Of a DNA stretch of 64,000 nt, positions 2,118-7,640 are shown piece by piece. Source of the DNA: a virus; IMG/VR virus record IMGVR_UViG_3300043256_000274, positions 12,411-76,410 of that record. The stretch is one strand, 5' to 3'. Below the pieces are notes generated by a model. It searched no databases, was not told the DNA's origin, and saw nothing but the letters and a program-made list of their open reading frames with translations. Position 1 is the first letter of the stretch. Each line of letters starts with the position of its first letter. The position numbers were made by a program, and so were the translations under genes.

Positions 2118-2359
2118 TGGGTGCGCTCGAAGTTGGCGCTGGTCAGGGTGATGGGCCGGACCATGGTGCCCAGGGGGTAGGTCCAGGGCTCGTCGTGCAT
2201 GTGCAGGAGTTGGCGCGCGTTGCAGAACGTGAGTTCTTCGCTGGGCATCTTGAGCATGACTAGGTCCGCATCGTCGAGGAACCAAGTGAAGTTGGCGAGC
2301 TCCTCGATTCGGCGTTCGGGGTAGGCGGGATCGCGGATGGTGATGGTGGGTTCAGGCAT
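2114..2359 (-). CDS. Hypothetical protein
   Basis: 81 aa ORF coupled to the next gene. Confidence 0.55.
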   Translation of the reverse strand: MPEPTITIRDPAYPERRIEELANFTWFLDDADLVMLKMPSEELTFCNARQLLHMHDEPWTYPLGTMVRPITLTSANFERTQ

Positions 2360-3145
2360 GGAGGTTTCTAGCGACGACAGACTCGAAAGACGCCGGCGAC
2401 GGCGACGATCAGAGCAACGACCACAAGGCCACAGGTGGTGAGAAGGATGATGTCGAACATGGGTGAAGGGTACCTGAGCTTGAGAATTTTTGGTGTAGGA
2501 AATTTTATTTGGGGGAGGGCTCGAGTGGCGCAGCTATTTTGGGTGTGGCCAGGGGTCTCGAATCGGGACACCGATCTTCACAATCCTGGTACATGGAAAT
2601 CCTTTCCATGGACCTAACCCCTTGCTATGCAACGACTTACGTCGACCGCCAAGATGGCAGCTCACCTGGCACGGCGATGCAACCCTATGTATACCAACAG
2701 GTTACAACATCGGCCATCTTTTCCACCCCACTTGGCACGGCCACGTCTTACCATACCCTTACCTTACACCCCCCTTACATAGGCCCCCTTCGCGTCCAGT
2801 CCCAATACGGGAATTCGCGTCCAGTCATCCAGTCTCCGTCCACCCTAGGGTGGATGCGCTAAGCCCATGCGGGGTAAGCACTTAGAGCGATTGTCCACTC
2901 TGTCCAGTCTCAGCGAGAAATTCGCAGGAGAGTACAGCGGAAGCCCAGTGGTGTCCACCTTACTCCTTTTCCTACTCTCCTCACAATATAGAGAGAGAGA
3001 GTGGATGAGTGGATGGGGTGGACGGAATCCCACGCTGGGCAACGGGTTAGGAGAATCCAGTCTCTGAGATCGAGAGTGGACGTATGGCCCTGGAGACTGG
3101 ACATCGGGCCGAGACTGGACGCTGGATGCTCCCAGGCCTCTTATA

Positions 3146-3186
3146 TGGACCCCCTTCGAGTGGACCCCCTTCGAGTGGACCCCCTT
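3146..3186. repeat. Tandem repeat TGGACCCCCTTCGAG x2.7
   Basis: 15-bp units at 3146 and 3161, partial unit at 3176. Confidence 0.9.
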
Positions 3187-3385
3187 GCGCTATGGAGGTT
3201 CCTATGGTGGACGCTGCAGGAGCTCCGCTCCCGCGTCCGCGGAGTGGATGGGTCATGGGTCAGGTTTCACGCGCGGAGACGGGAGAGAGCCGGGGGGCTT
3301 GCGACGGCGCCCGCTGCGCTCCACCCCACCCCACACCCCCACCACTCGGGGACAATGGCGCCGCCCTAACAGACCCCTAATCACG

Positions 3386-3418
3386 AAAAAGGCGCCCCGA
3401 GCCTATGCCCAGGGCGCC
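3386..3418 (-). terminator. Intrinsic terminator ending the early cassette
   Basis: GGCGCCC/GGGCGCC stem followed by TTTTT on the minus strand, just after the stop at 3441. Confidence 0.7.
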
Positions 3419-3440
3419 ATGCGGCTAGAACCAACGCCAG

Positions 3441-3971
3441 TCAGACAGCCGCGAACCCGTCGAAGTGGGCCAGCCCATCGTCCCCGATGTAGCCGTACGC
3501 ACCCTCTCCCAGGAGCTTGGCCGCGGCGCTGACAGCCTCGCCCACTGTGACCTCAGCATCCGTTAGCCCAACCAAGGCGGGCGCCAGCATTGACAGAGCG
3601 GACACGTCAAGTGATCGCCAATCCCACGCCCCAGTCCCATGTCCGACTTGCGACAACCAAACATCATGCCCGAGCAGCTCCCATCCGGTCCACTGGCGCC
3701 AGAGGTCACCGTCCCGTAGCTCCGCGGCACGATCGAGCAACGGCGCGAATCCACGCCACCACGCCAACAGCCGCAGCCCCATCGAGCGCTCCACCCCGGG
3801 AGCCAGTTCTACAGTATCTAGCTCAATGTCATCCTGCGAAGCGAGGCATGGATCCACGCAATACCCCGCCCCCCGATGGGCTTCCGTGCCACAAGTGCAG
3901 GCCCCGCGGCCCGTGCTCGACCATTGGGCAGCCTCGACGTACCCCGAGACGAATTCCCGTAGCCAGCTCAC
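3441..3971 (-). CDS. Hypothetical protein
   Basis: GTG start overlapping the upstream TGA (GTGA); LGHDVWLSQVGHGTGAWD segment. Confidence 0.6.
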   Translation of the reverse strand: MSWLREFVSGYVEAAQWSSTGRGACTCGTEAHRGAGYCVDPCLASQDDIELDTVELAPGVERSMGLRLLAWWRGFAPLLDRAAELRDGDLWRQWTGWELLGHDVWLSQVGHGTGAWDWRSLDVSALSMLAPALVGLTDAEVTVGEAVSAAAKLLGEGAYGYIGDDGLAHFDGFAAV

Positions 3972-4792
3972 GCGGCACCCCCGATCCGCTCGGACAATCG
4001 CTCCACCACATTCCCGGCCCACTTGGCCGCGATCTCGGCCGACTCGAGGCACGCCCCGAGAATCGCGAGGTCCCCATCGGAGACCCCGCGCCCCGCCATG
4101 TTCGGCAGTTCTGAGAAGTGCAACGGCGGCCGGAAGCCCAACACCAGGAAAGCGTGGCAGATTTCCCAGGACAGATCCATCCCGCCCCCGCTTAGCGCTA
4201 GGTGCGGTTCATCGTCGAGCATGACCACGACCACGCAACCAACCGACATAAGCTCAGCCTGAGCGGCTCCCGCGTCGAATCCGCTACCACTGGGCAACGG
4301 GTAGGCATAGTTCATCATCGGCTCGAATTCCTCCGGCGATTCCTGCGCCAGCTCCGATGCCCGTTCGTCGATCTCTTCCCGCACGTCCTCTTCCTCTTCC
4401 CGCGTCTCGTCCCGCTCCGCGCGCAGCTCCTTGTAGCGCAGCTCCTTGTAGCGCAGCTCGATTGTGTAGTGCAGCGCCGTGGGATTGTGTCGATGATCAT
4501 GACGGGTTTTTTTCAGTGATTCTAGCTCCGCGCCGTCGTCCGCATTGAGACCGGTCAGCCTCACCTTGAATTCGTCGGCCGCGTCACTGTCCCGTTCGTC
4601 GATGTACCCCAGCACAATATCCAGCTCCTCCCCCGAAAAGTCCGGGTACACCAGCTCTGCGCGTGGATCAAGTCCATCGGTATCGGTGAAAGCTTCCGAC
4701 CAGTCGACGTCAACCGGCGTGGTGGTCACAGTGTCACAGTCAAGTCGGCCGAATCTCTCAGCGGCCAGTTTCTTCGCTCGTTCGATGTTCAT
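3968..4792 (-). CDS. Highly acidic hypothetical protein (possible DNA mimic)
   Basis: Start follows the AGGAACCAACGCC leader; D/E-rich; internal ELRYK duplication. Confidence 0.6.
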   Translation of the reverse strand: MNIERAKKLAAERFGRLDCDTVTTTPVDVDWSEAFTDTDGLDPRAELVYPDFSGEELDIVLGYIDERDSDAADEFKVRLTGLNADDGAELESLKKTRHDHRHNPTALHYTIELRYKELRYKELRAERDETREEEEDVREEIDERASELAQESPEEFEPMMNYAYPLPSGSGFDAGAAQAELMSVGCVVVVMLDDEPHLALSGGGMDLSWEICHAFLVLGFRPPLHFSELPNMAGRGVSDGDLAILGACLESAEIAAKWAGNVVERLSERIGGAA

Positions 4793-4803
4793 GGCGTTGG
4801 TTC

Positions 4804-5145
4804 CTATTTCATCCGTCCGGTTTCGACCATGGTCCCAAGGTCCGAGACCCTGAATTGTCCATGATCCAGAAAAAGCGTGGCCGCGTAGGTGTCGCCCGTA
4901 TTGCAATAGGAAACACCGTCGCGCCCGTCATCGTCGGCGCAGCCTTCTACGCCGTAGGTCCCTAGCAGCTCATCCGCTGCGTATAGCACCTGTTCCGCAC
5001 GGGAAGGCTCATTGTAGCATTGTCGGACCCACCGGTCACACTGTTCTGACTCTTCGCGGGGATCCAGCTCCCCGCGAATCATGGCCAGAATACGTTGTGC
5101 AGTGAACACGCCCGTGATTCTTCTCAAGTGGTGCAGAGTGGTCAT
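4804..5145 (-). CDS. Hypothetical protein
   Basis: 113 aa ORF; YCNTGDTYAATL segment. Confidence 0.6.
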   Translation of the reverse strand: MTTLHHLRRITGVFTAQRILAMIRGELDPREESEQCDRWVRQCYNEPSRAEQVLYAADELLGTYGVEGCADDDGRDGVSYCNTGDTYAATLFLDHGQFRVSDLGTMVETGRMK

Positions 5146-5276
5146 TATTGTCCCAGCCCCATGCTCTGCAGCATGCCGTAGAGCTTGAAAAGGCCGAGGG
5201 CGAGGACGGACCCCATCCCGGCGATGAAGAGGACGTAGGTGGGCACGGTGCGGAGTGTGTTGGTTATGGCTTGCAT
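5145..5276 (-). CDS. Small membrane protein (43 aa, MQAITNTLRTVPTYVLFIAGMG...)
   Basis: Manual translation; preceded by the conserved leader; TAATG coupling to the next gene. Confidence 0.55.
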   Translation of the reverse strand: MQAITNTLRTVPTYVLFIAGMGSVLALGLFKLYGMLQSMGLGQ

Positions 5277-5384
5277 GGCGTTGGTTTCCTTTTCTACCCC
5301 TATTATCGGCGGATTGTCCCCAGCACTGTAGAGCCTAGCCCAGTTTCCAAGGCACTGTAAACCGAGCCAGGTTCTACACTTATG

Positions 5385-5477
5385 CTATTCTCCGCGAGCG
5401 CAGTGGGCAATCCACAAGAACAGGAGCGGGATTCCCACTACGATCCACAATAGGGCCGTGACAACCTTCTGAAACAT
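5385..5477 (-). CDS. Small membrane peptide (30 aa, MFQKVVTALLWIVVGIPLLFLWIAHCARGE)
   Basis: Manual translation; one hydrophobic helix; directly downstream of the clamp gene. Confidence 0.4.
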   Translation of the reverse strand: MFQKVVTALLWIVVGIPLLFLWIAHCARGE

Positions 5478-5481
5478 GGTT

Positions 5482-6678
5482 CTAGCCTATGGTAATGGGC
5501 ATCAGAATGCCCCGGAAACCTTGCGCGCGGAATTCGATGGGGCTTTGCGGGTTGTTCCACCGGACCTCAACTCGATCCGCCTGGGTCGCCTTGACGGTAT
5601 CGGCCAAGTAATCCGGGTTCACCGCGAAGCCGGCCCTATCTTGGACCTCGCCGTTATCATCCTCGAATGTAGGCCATGAATGGATGGAAGCTCCGCGCAG
5701 CTCCGCGCAGCTCTCCTTGCCCACACTCTTCCCGACAACCGACAGCGTATCACCGTCGCGGGTGATTCGAACGGTTGCAGTATCATCCGAGCATGCCGCC
5801 GATACGAGCTTGGTGCGCTTGAGGAGTTCGGTGCAATCCAGGAGCAGAATGCTCTCGACACCCTCGCCCGGAAGGATCGAACTGTATCGCGGAAACTCCC
5901 CGTCGATAGCGCGGACGGTGAGCGTCACACTATCTAGCACGAACCAGAATTTCCCCGTGCATTCGGAGTAGGACAGCGCCGCCACGCTCGACTTCTGGCC
6001 CTTTTTGTATTTTTTCGGCAGTAGCGCCGTCAATGCTTTGCACCCAGTATTCGGAAGTAGGCCAAGCCCTCTAGACTCACCGTCCACGAATTCCAGGCCG
6101 AATGTCTCGACCTCATCGAGGACCTCGACCACATGCAGACGGTGGCCGTCCGTCGTGACGATACGGACCGCATTGTCCTCGGGGAATTCGAATTGAGCCC
6201 CGTGCATAGCATAGCGCCCCGCGTCCCGCGCCATGGCAGGCACCGCACGAACTAGAGCCCGGGAGAGCTGTACGGCGTCCATCGTGGCGTGGCGTTCATC
6301 GGGTCCACGCTCAGGGAAACTCGGGAATTCGTCCACATCGAAGGTGCAGAGCTCGATCGACTCGCCGAGATCGGTTGTCGCACTGATAGGCGAGGTCGGG
6401 GACTCTTCCCCGCATGAAAGCGTAACGGTCTCACCCTCGGCCGCTTTGACGAAATCGAGCAGGTCCCGCAGGCCCACAACCATGGTGCCTACTTCGATGG
6501 TCGACGCGGCAAGCGTGGCGCGGACGTAGCATTCTAGGTCGGTTCCTTCGATGCTACTATCCCCGTCAGACGTGATGCGCACGGCCTCCAATATGGGCCG
6601 CGCGTCCCGCTTGGGGCTCACCTTCGCGCACGCTTCCAGGGCAGTCCGAAGGGCGCCCGTCGTGGTTTCGATTTTCAT
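5482..6678 (-). CDS. dnaN: DNA polymerase III beta sliding clamp homolog
   Basis: 398 aa; RPILEAV, GTDLE, DEFP, RYAMHG, VTTDGHRL, IDGEFPRY, NPDYLAD, ILMPI. Confidence 0.9.
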   Translation of the reverse strand: MKIETTTGALRTALEACAKVSPKRDARPILEAVRITSDGDSSIEGTDLECYVRATLAASTIEVGTMVVGLRDLLDFVKAAEGETVTLSCGEESPTSPISATTDLGESIELCTFDVDEFPSFPERGPDERHATMDAVQLSRALVRAVPAMARDAGRYAMHGAQFEFPEDNAVRIVTTDGHRLHVVEVLDEVETFGLEFVDGESRGLGLLPNTGCKALTALLPKKYKKGQKSSVAALSYSECTGKFWFVLDSVTLTVRAIDGEFPRYSSILPGEGVESILLLDCTELLKRTKLVSAACSDDTATVRITRDGDTLSVVGKSVGKESCAELRGASIHSWPTFEDDNGEVQDRAGFAVNPDYLADTVKATQADRVEVRWNNPQSPIEFRAQGFRGILMPITIG

Positions 6679-6908
6679 GGCGTTGGTTCCTCAATAGGCA
6701 GCCGAGGGAATCCCGGCGGCATGGCTACAGTATCGGCGACAATGCAGAGGAATCAAACCGAATTCGCCGATTTCCCACTGGAAACCTTTTCCTGCCGACC
6801 CATCTGGGAAGACTTTTCCTATGCGTCAACCTGAGACATGGGGAAATCTTCCAGTCTCGAGCGAGCGACGCCGGCACTGAGCTCGAGACACATGGAAAAA
6901 CCGATCTT

Positions 6909-7095
6909 CATTCGGCTGTTTTGCATTCGGCCCTCATTCGGCTGTCTCGGCTTTTTTTTCGACCTCCCCCGGGTCACTTTTTTTAGACCCCCCGGGTGCC
7001 GATTTTCATTCGGCTGTCCAGCCCTCCCCCGGCCGTGTCCTCAGCGTTCGCTATTCGCGAACAACGAACGAGCTAGATTCATTCGGCTGTCCGCG
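6909..7095. repeat. Non-coding cluster of five CATTCGGC copies plus T8/C-run/CCCGGG blocks
   Basis: Copies near 6909, 6925, 6935, 7007 and 7080. Confidence 0.8.
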
Positions 7096-7117
7096 AGTCA
7101 GGCTGCCTGACTCGCGT

Positions 7118-7210
7118 TCACAGGGAGATGAGGACTTCGAGGACCACCAGGGCGATGAAGCCCAGGCCCCACAGAATCCAGCGCTTCTTGACCTGTGGAT
7201 GGATGTTCAT
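7118..7210 (-). CDS. Small membrane peptide (30 aa, MNIHPQVKKRWILWGLG...)
   Basis: ATG lies within a GCCGAATGA junction; hydrophobic C-terminus. Confidence 0.5.
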   Translation of the reverse strand: MNIHPQVKKRWILWGLGFIALVVLEVLISL

Positions 7211-7296
7211 TCGGCTGTCTCCTTGAATCGTTGCCAAGCTGTCCAGATGGACAGTAACGCTTGGACGCTCACAATAGTCAGAATATACCAGATCAT
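7207..7296 (-). CDS. Small membrane peptide (29 aa, MIWYILTIVSVQALLSIWTAWQRFKETAE)
   Basis: Manual translation; starts and ends in GCCGAATGA junctions; AAGGAG precedes the next start. Confidence 0.55.
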   Translation of the reverse strand: MIWYILTIVSVQALLSIWTAWQRFKETAE

Positions 7297-7640
7297 TCGG
7301 CTTCTTCGTCGATCGGCCATCTCGGCATGTGCATGTAACCGATCGTGAGATCCAGCGCTTCGTCGCGAGAGACACCGTCCTGCACACAGAACTCACGGAA
7401 CACCGCTGCGATCAGTGGGACGTAGTGAGTGGTCACGGCCTTCTGCGCCTGGTCGAGCGCAGCAACATCTAGATGTCGTAGTTTCATCATGGTCGGCAAG
7501 GGGGTAAGGGGGGTCATGTAGATAGGTGTGGGTATCGGTCTCGGCACTCCAACCATGAGTGCCTCGGTCGCGTTGATCTTCTTCCAGGTGTGCCCTCGGT
7601 ACTCGAATTGGTCACCGACGATCAGGTCTTGGAAAATCAC
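7293..7640 (-). CDS. Hypothetical protein
   Basis: 115 aa coupled ORF. Confidence 0.55.
   Translation of the reverse strand: MIFQDLIVGDQFEYRGHTWKKINATEALMVGVPRPIPTPIYMTPLTPLPTMMKLRHLDVAALDQAQKAVTTHYVPLIAAVFREFCVQDGVSRDEALDLTIGYMHMPRWPIDEEAE

Follow-up and report, generated by a model that had tools for sequence, protein, structure and literature searches.

Regulation by bacterial 3' untranslated regions (UTRs) and by long-range pairing with ribosome-binding sites (RBSs) has been recognised only recently, and we know of no described case of either in a phage operon. Small RNAs (sRNAs) such as CpxQ, SroC and DapZ are derived from the 3' UTR of an mRNA and share the terminator of this parent. 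In Staphylococcus aureus, a motif in the 3' UTR of icaR pairs with the same mRNA's Shine-Dalgarno (SD) region, blocks initiation and forms an RNase III substrate (PMC3868564). Anti-RBS sequences located hundreds of nucleotides (nt) downstream pair with the RBS and repress in vivo, and they are depleted from genes (PMC12697547). Here, we describe an operon with a sliding-clamp gene of an uncultured phage, in which three genes start with a common leader and the 3' UTR contains the complement of this leader. The operon is located in a 64,000-nt stretch of DNA (the window) that comprises bases 12,411-76,410 of a single virus record of 76,410 bp, IMGVR_UViG_3300043256_000274 of IMG/VR. Positions refer to the window unless they are given as genome positions.

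The only sequencing run listed for the stretch is a DNA run from a marine-sediment metagenome, which is the probable source; among the contigs of this run one covers the locus, and it gave no variants and no joints. A gene call based on codon usage predicted approximately 97 genes for the whole 76.4-kb phage genome, all of them on the minus strand. This orientation is borne out by the family matches of the clamp, the large terminase (TerL), the portal and a DUF1353 protein. Therefore, each inverted (plus-strand) copy of the leader gives rise to an anti-leader in a sense RNA.

The leader and its complement on the same transcript

The existence of a common leader at three gene starts and of an inverted 12-nt copy between the last stop codon and the terminator had been proposed in an original prediction that was made from the sequence. 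Both were confirmed by exact matches, and their coordinates were correct (Table 1). The leader consists of the SD sequence AGGA, a fixed 9-nt spacer (ACCAACGCC) and ATG, in identical register at the three starts; each minus-strand copy ends in the ATG of its open reading frame (ORF). In the third copy, AGGA is overlapped by the TAG stop codon of the upstream ORF of 113 amino acids (aa). The starts of the clamp and of the 274-aa ORF are alike over approximately 27 nt, with two differences, through codon 4 (ATGAA[A/C]ATCGAA, family D2).

The inverted copy lies within the gap of 22 nt between the last stop codon (TGA at 3441-3443) and the terminator; it starts 1 nt beyond the stop codon and ends 9 nt ahead of the terminator stem. 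Complementarity of the mRNA's 3' tail extends over 12 nt without mismatch plus one G-U pair for the leaders of the clamp and the 274-aa gene, and over 11 bp for that of the 43-aa gene. A terminator scan identified no convincing terminator between the promoter-like sites or leaders and position 3418. The original prediction had named as an alternative that the inverted copy is a leftover leader of a lost plus-strand gene. This is unlikely, given that no gene is predicted on the plus strand of the genome.

A second inverted copy was found outside of the window, 5.3 kb before its start and within the preceding 12.4 kb of the genome. It comprises 14 nt including the ATG (GAACCAACGCCATG) and occupies genome positions 7057-7070 on the plus strand (G000:C1; window -5353..-5340). 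These positions belong to the TerL gene (genome 6797-8302, minus strand; Terminase_6C match), in which the 14-mer is read in frame as ...CAC ATG GCG TTG GTT CTC... and codes for H-M-A-L-V-L. The six residues are part of a patch (H x A x x L) that is hypervariable, whereas the rest of the segment is highly conserved. In place of HMALVL, the ten nearest terminases (73-84% identity) contain HHTAEIL, HLAILL, HLAKLL, HMAQLL and the like between nearly invariant flanks, and more distant homologues are likewise variable at this site. At the protein level, the copy is thus absent from the ten nearest terminases. Two codons of the 14-mer are rare, namely TTG (9% of the Leu codons) and GTT (12% of the Val codons). 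This is consistent with selection at the nucleotide level, but the argument is circular as evidence. In three TerL homologues of this lineage (P0082, P0188 and P0191), which have a length of 830-860 aa, the intein/homing-endonuclease domains PF14528, PF05204 and PF14890 were detected; these proteins are intein-containing variants.

In total, the motif occurs five times, with three copies in leader orientation and two inverted ones, all of which are within 7.0-19.1 kb of the 76.4-kb genome. In shuffled sequences, 0.33 copies of the 12-mer with at most one mismatch were expected, and none of 100 shuffles reached the observed number of five. For antisense 12-mers of the 16-nt leader, Markov models of orders 0-5 predicted 0.015-0.037 occurrences genome-wide, and approximately 0.001 for 14-mers. 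Observed were two independent antisense loci, one of which has a length of 14 nt. It is thus unlikely that both antisense copies arose by chance; the a priori probability is about 1e-3 to 1e-4. Among 97 gene starts, this leader is the only one with an antisense match of more than 12 nt. Further anti-leader copies of at least 8 nt in noncoding RNA regions were not found beyond chance. All matches end sharply, between flanks without relation to one another, and this fits a decayed duplication less well than a short functional core.

RNA duplex prediction yielded strong duplexes of the leaders with the anti-leader of the 3' UTR (-24.9 to -29.4 kcal/mol; net about -13 to -14 kcal/mol), and values of -29 to -35 kcal/mol with the terminase segment. 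When the 1450 nt that extend from shortly before the 274-aa start to the terminator were folded, the minimum free energy structure contained the 13-bp helix of leader and anti-leader, with pair probabilities of 0.83-1.0. Cofolding of a 90-nt 3' fragment with each of the starts was favourable by a net -12.7 to -14.2 kcal/mol once the local structure (hairpin 1) had been melted, and the expected helix was formed in trans with the clamp and the 274-aa starts. These predicted energies indicate feasibility only, and the same is to be expected of any perfect complement of a 12-mer. A further complementarity of 15 nt (93%) was noticed between positions 4776-4790, which cover codons 1-6 of the 274-aa ORF, and 7059-7073 in the repeat array upstream of the clamp promoter. 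It is probably due to chance; matches of this kind are expected about once in 5 kb.

With respect to the earlier interpretation, the same-strand anti-leader, the lack of a convincing terminator in between and the feasibility of the predicted duplexes thus stood. The label "early" for the cassette did not, because nothing in the analysis indicates that the operon is early.

We assign a probability of about 0.4 to the reading that the 3' element is an anti-leader that limits translation from the shared start cassette, as suggested by the sequence and by modelled RNA structures. The element would pair with the leaders over 13 bp at the clamp and the 274-aa gene (including the G-U pair at the second G of AGGA) and over 11 bp at the 43-aa gene. 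Pairing would hide the spacer and part of the RBS, which would lower translation initiation, and the duplex would probably be a target for a double-stranded RNase and be cleaved. In cis, the transcript could fold back on the start of the 274-aa gene, which is 1.35 kb upstream and would be the easiest target. In trans, a 3' decay fragment that is protected by the terminator might outlast the body of the mRNA and act on the starts of the clamp and the 43-aa gene. As a net effect, accumulating transcripts of the clamp operon would dampen the operon's own output, which would correspond to negative feedback or to a late shut-off. Here, we infer the encounter of the RNAs in vivo, the repression by pairing and its timing. 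If the reading is true, one short 3' element that acts on three leaders, including that of the replication clamp, would represent a compact and easily engineered translational feedback device.

It is improbable that this regulation reaches beyond the operon. A 13-nt "word" (UGGCGUUGGUUCU) is present twice in sense transcripts, in the 3' tail of the clamp operon and in the late terminase mRNA, and the two mRNAs might cross-regulate each other directly. Silencing of the clamp-operon leaders would then come from their own 3' end and from terminase mRNA as it accumulates; in the other direction, these leaders, when abundant, could mark the terminase mRNA for cleavage. Such cross-regulation, if true, would constitute a protein-free, RNA-encoded timer between DNA replication and packaging.

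The operon, its relatives and the surrounding DNA

The features of the operon are listed in Table 1. The last 90 nt of the transcript fold as two hairpins, namely hairpin 1 and then the terminator (hairpin 2). The anti-leader is located in the apical half of hairpin 1, where the loop contains four of its bases, a weak, G-U-rich inner stem five and a bulge three.

Table 1. Coordinates of leaders, genes, promoter-like sites and 3' elements of the clamp operon.
Feature	Position	Strand	Remarks
Leader copy 1, AGGAACCAACGCCATG	6676..6691	-	Exact match; translation start of the sliding-clamp gene
Leader copy 2, AGGAAACCAACGCCATG (one extra A)	5274..5290	-	Start of the 43-aa membrane-type ORF
Leader copy 3, AGGAACCAACGCCATG	4790..4805	-	Exact match; start of the 274-aa ORF
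Promoter-like site upstream of the clamp gene, TTGATT-N13-GCCGATACT	6729..6756	-	Read from the sequence; -10-like box same as at 5302-5331
Sliding clamp (DNA polymerase III beta-like, DnaN-type), 398 aa	5482..6678	-	PF00712, PF02767, PF02768; phrog_947 at 3.8e-43
Promoter-like site upstream of the 43-aa ORF, TACAGTG-N13-GCCGATAAT	5302..5331	-	Read from the sequence; kept in L028
43-aa hydrophobic ORF	5145..5276	-	Kept in L028 (62%) and L206 (38%)
113-aa ORF	4804..5145	-	No family match
274-aa ORF	3968..4792	-	No family function
Last ORF of the operon, 176 aa from a GTG overlapping the upstream TGA	3441..3971	-	phrog_1915 match (function unknown)
Hairpin 1, 7-bp outer stem (GCGGCUG/UAGCCGC) around stop codon and anti-leader	3421..3452	-	RNA fold, -13.7 kcal/mol alone
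Anti-leader, mRNA UGGCGUUGGUUC (plus strand GAACCAACGCCA)	3428..3439	-	Exact inverted 12-mer; pairs I18, I19
Intrinsic terminator, 12-bp GC-rich stem (10 GC), 4-nt loop, U5 tail	3386..3418	-	Terminator scan; stem 3418-3391

Searches of Pfam, PHROGs and NCBIfam gave no function for the ORFs of 43, 113, 274 and 176 aa, and the ESM Atlas contained no usable match. Residues 158-268 of the 274-aa ORF, its C-terminal domain, share 43-52% identity with ORFs on five large phage contigs of IMG/VR. Within this ORF, a perfect tandem duplication of 15 bp (GCGCAGCTCCTTGTA twice, 4421-4450) results in a repeated ELRYK of the protein. For the last ORF, a GTG at 4052 is an alternative start that would give 203 aa. 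The -10-like box is common to both promoter-like sites (6729-6737, GCCGATACT; 5302-5310, GCCGATAAT) and resembles the sigma-28/FliA consensus GCCGATAA. Apart from the leader, the genome contains a second, larger family of start-associated repeats, which is formed by the copies of GCCGAATG.

Close relatives were not found in phage, IMG/VR and GTDB-genome collections, and no genome contig exceeded 28% identity. Among metagenome contigs, there is one close relative (L028, 2378 bp), the clamp of which is 77-78% identical. A second clamp relative (57% identity) is encoded on a 75-kb contig that also carries a TerL gene with 78% identity; other relatives have a size of 66-73 kb. In L028, the leader of the 43-aa gene reads exactly AGGAACCAACGCCATG and is preceded by the promoter-like TCTACAGTG-N13-GCCGATAA; the 5' UTR has diverged and gained a hairpin, and the protein is only 62% identical. 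The exact leader lends mild support to a constraint on this sequence; the probability that it was kept by chance is about 0.07 at a background nucleotide identity of ~80%, a rough estimate that was not computed. L028 does not contain the clamp start, and the genes following its 43-aa ORF differ. At L028:1-110, an in-frame TAG was noticed at the clamp codon that aligns with residue 24, and the first ~50 nt are unlike the N-terminus of the clamp. Either this contig end is chimeric or the clamp gene is truncated there at its 5' end.

A more distant terminase relative, the 69.6-kb record L206, has a homologue of the 43-aa gene behind a similar CCGATAG box, a different leader in place of the AGGAACCAACGCCATG type and no clamp. 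The box TACAGTG/TACACTG...(G)CCGATA(A/C/G) in front of the 43-aa gene is thus kept in a close and in a distant relative (L028:1335-1368 and L206:20-42). Exact matches of the 16-mer were found in 27 IMG/VR contigs; each of them is at one ordinary gene start, and none of these contigs is related according to blastn and tblastx. L005 and L019 contain the leader and an inverted near-copy at a distance of ~3.5 kb; both were rejected, as they are unrelated phages and the copy has a mismatch. The combined pattern of promoter and leader had a single chance match in IMG/VR, within a coding region. An IMG/VR scan with the conserved segment upstream of the 43-aa promoter-like site gave 0 matches. Querying IMG/VR with the clamp (as sequence and as alignment) and with the 176-aa and 274-aa ORFs yielded no close relatives and only the distant C-terminal domain of the 274-aa ORF.

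Positions 2470-3386, which directly follow the operon terminator, comprise ~900 nt of noncoding DNA that is packed with short direct repeats. For example, TGGACCCCCTT occurs three times with a spacing of 15 nt (3146-3186), and words of the GTCCA/TGGAC type are present with switching polarity. From its sequence, this region resembles an origin or some other array of protein-binding sites. At 6908-7307, TCATTCGGCTGT (minus strand ACAGCCGAATGA) is present in six copies, which are located in the gap that precedes the promoter-like site of the clamp and at small-ORF starts. On the plus strand, two tandem terminator-like hairpins with T-runs are found at 6940-6985 in a genome that has no plus-strand genes. 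Their role could be to end antisense transcription through the clamp operon; alternatively, the segment may be an A/T-rich unwinding stretch beside the repeat array.

Alternative explanations

Several observations weigh against a regulatory role of the anti-leader. After correction for ~95 distinct gene starts, the joint p of the antisense copies is only about 0.01-0.06. Antisense matches of 12 nt in the sense strand also occur at 3/94 other gene starts, and the same 5.1 kb contain perfect 12-nt inverted pairs that are unrelated to the leader (I13, I16 and I21). Because the same ~5 kb has such others, a single 12-nt inverted match is unremarkable and weak evidence by itself. The terminase copy is lineage-specific, because the ten nearest terminases differ in their residues at the hypervariable patch, and it may be of chance origin. 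The likeness of the clamp and 274-aa starts includes positions +4 to +12, for which antisense pairing gives no reason. Furthermore, the anti-leader is partly sequestered in hairpin 1, with 5/12 bases paired at p > 0.8, and it would be covered by terminating ribosomes. As L028 ends before the 3' end of the operon, the comparison with this contig covers only the leader at the 43-aa gene. Finally, the 20 sense copies of GCCGAATG are accompanied by 1 antisense copy genome-wide; therefore, the genome has no general anti-leader habit. On balance, the inverted copies are probably not accidental, and the statistics are not overwhelming.

It is only slightly less likely than the anti-leader reading that the leader is a start-associated sequence only, be it a copied or selected efficient start that spread by short-homology recombination or the RNA operator of a protein, like the targets of T4 RegA. 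The inverted copies would be inert, either chance matches or scars of templated patch mutations. The likeness of ~27 nt between the clamp and 274-aa starts, which includes four codons, resembles a duplicated joint, and reused starts are a habit of this phage, as the second family GCCGAATG(A) indicates; RBSs of the AGGAACC type also recur at other genes. The locally common 12-nt inverted matches and the lack of conservation of the TerL copy are in line with inert copies, and the start-associated sequence (SAS) of Cluster K mycobacteriophages also has lone opposite-orientation copies without an assigned role (PMC3203893). This explanation has to cope with the low a priori expectation for two antisense copies of one motif, one of them with 14 nt, and with the location of the other copy within the 22-nt gap between stop codon and terminator of the same operon. 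Moreover, selection normally acts against sequences of this kind, in which an mRNA contains a perfect complement (12-13 nt) of one of its own ribosome sites (PMC12697547). If the inverted copies are non-functional, the locus still illustrates clearly how translation starts are reused within a mosaic region of a phage.

Two further explanations invoke DNA instead of RNA. An asymmetric site GAACCAACGCCA(TG) to which a DNA-binding protein of the phage or the host binds, for instance a repressor, a roadblock or a factor for replication/partition, would account for five copies in 12 kb, clustered and in both orientations. The 13th base (the A before GAACC) is common to both inverted copies, four of the five copies continue with TG, and iteron-like noncoding regions are nearby (2470-3386 and 6900-7300). 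Such a site is unlikely nonetheless: it would not need the exact SD/start-codon register of three copies, one copy is inside a conserved enzyme gene, dyad symmetry is missing, and no candidate binding protein was identified. The mixed orientations relative to transcription are also unlike those of stoperators. Very unlikely is a mobile or recombined cassette of 1376 bp with the genes for the 274-aa and 176-aa ORFs and the 12-bp inverted repeats 3428-3439/4792-4803 as borders, which would have been inserted between the TAG of the 113-aa gene and the terminator and duplicated the TAG. The repeats bracket exactly two ORFs, beginning 12 nt ahead of the ATG and ending 1 nt past the stop codon; CTA (plus strand) is beside both ends, and the differing genes of L028 mark a mosaic spot. 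However, neither ORF belongs to a transposase or recombinase family, and the flank match of 3 nt has a chance probability of ~1/64 and lies within a CTAG palindrome, which is equally readable as a longer inverted repeat. A second copy of the two-gene module was not found by repeat and genome scans, and a cassette would not account for the copies at the clamp gene, at the 43-aa gene and in TerL. A switch by an invertible segment was also considered and rejected; once inverted, the segment would no longer supply the leader with a start codon, and there is no recombinase nearby.

Relation to known systems

In phage T4, the RegA protein binds a start-codon motif on several replication-gene mRNAs, including that of gene 45, which encodes the T4 clamp. 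As in the RegA regulon, several phage gene starts including that of the clamp have a common motif here. In contrast, the motif of RegA is a protein-bound operator that has no antisense copy, and family searches of the operon ORFs revealed no RegA-like protein. Complements of translation starts are known from two further systems. In hok mRNA, a distal complement of its own translation start (the fbi/tac fold-back) silences the message, and the toxin mRNA is activated by 3' trimming. The c4 antisense RNA of phages P1 and P7 is co-transcribed with its icd-ant target, processed and blocks the ribosome site; it lies upstream of its targets. The likeness to hok and c4 is limited to a complement of a translation start that is distal or within the own operon, with no homology or shared structure: a scan of positions 2300-7400 with Rfam 15 identified no family, and the only hit (blv_FSE, 25.5 bits versus a cut-off of 34 bits) was a chance match elsewhere.

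The locus also resembles sRNAs derived from 3' UTRs, as the putative seed is just upstream of a Rho-independent terminator, and the 3' end of a coding transcript ends at its own intrinsic terminator. Potential trans action on translation-initiation regions is a further common trait. These sRNAs, however, usually have targets in other operons, depend on Hfq/ProQ and contain conserved seeds, whereas the targets predicted here from the sequence are in the parent operon.

For the leader itself, the SAS of Cluster K mycobacteriophages (GGGATAGGAGCCC) is a close counterpart. It is an asymmetric repeat with an SD core at a fixed distance of few bases before the ATG of non-structural genes, occurs in 11-19 copies per genome and is conserved across the cluster; its conserved positions exceed those that pair with 16S rRNA (PMC3203893). 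Like the SAS, the leader is an asymmetric SD-core repeat immediately upstream of several start codons, three in this case. In contrast to the SAS, it is a different 14-16-mer with three sense and two inverted copies, and its conservation was seen at one site of L028. If the anti-leader is functional, it would offer a hypothesis for the unexplained opposite-orientation SAS copies in mycobacteriophages. The stoperators of Cluster A mycobacteriophages have one orientation, whereas the motif occurs in three versus two orientations in a genome that is transcribed one way.

The locus also resembles icaR: in both cases, the 3' UTR contains a complement of the ribosome-binding region of its own mRNA. 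The icaR mRNA is monocistronic, with a 3' UTR of more than 100 nt and a 7-nt anti-SD (UCCCCUG). The phage operon, in contrast, has a 3' UTR of ~22 nt before the terminator, a putative complement element of 12-13 nt that mostly covers the spacer and three possible targets 1.35-3.25 kb upstream. If the anti-leader is functional, the clamp operon thus represents a variation on known pairing of an mRNA's 3' UTR with its 5' region; otherwise, it contains an ordinary reused translation start.

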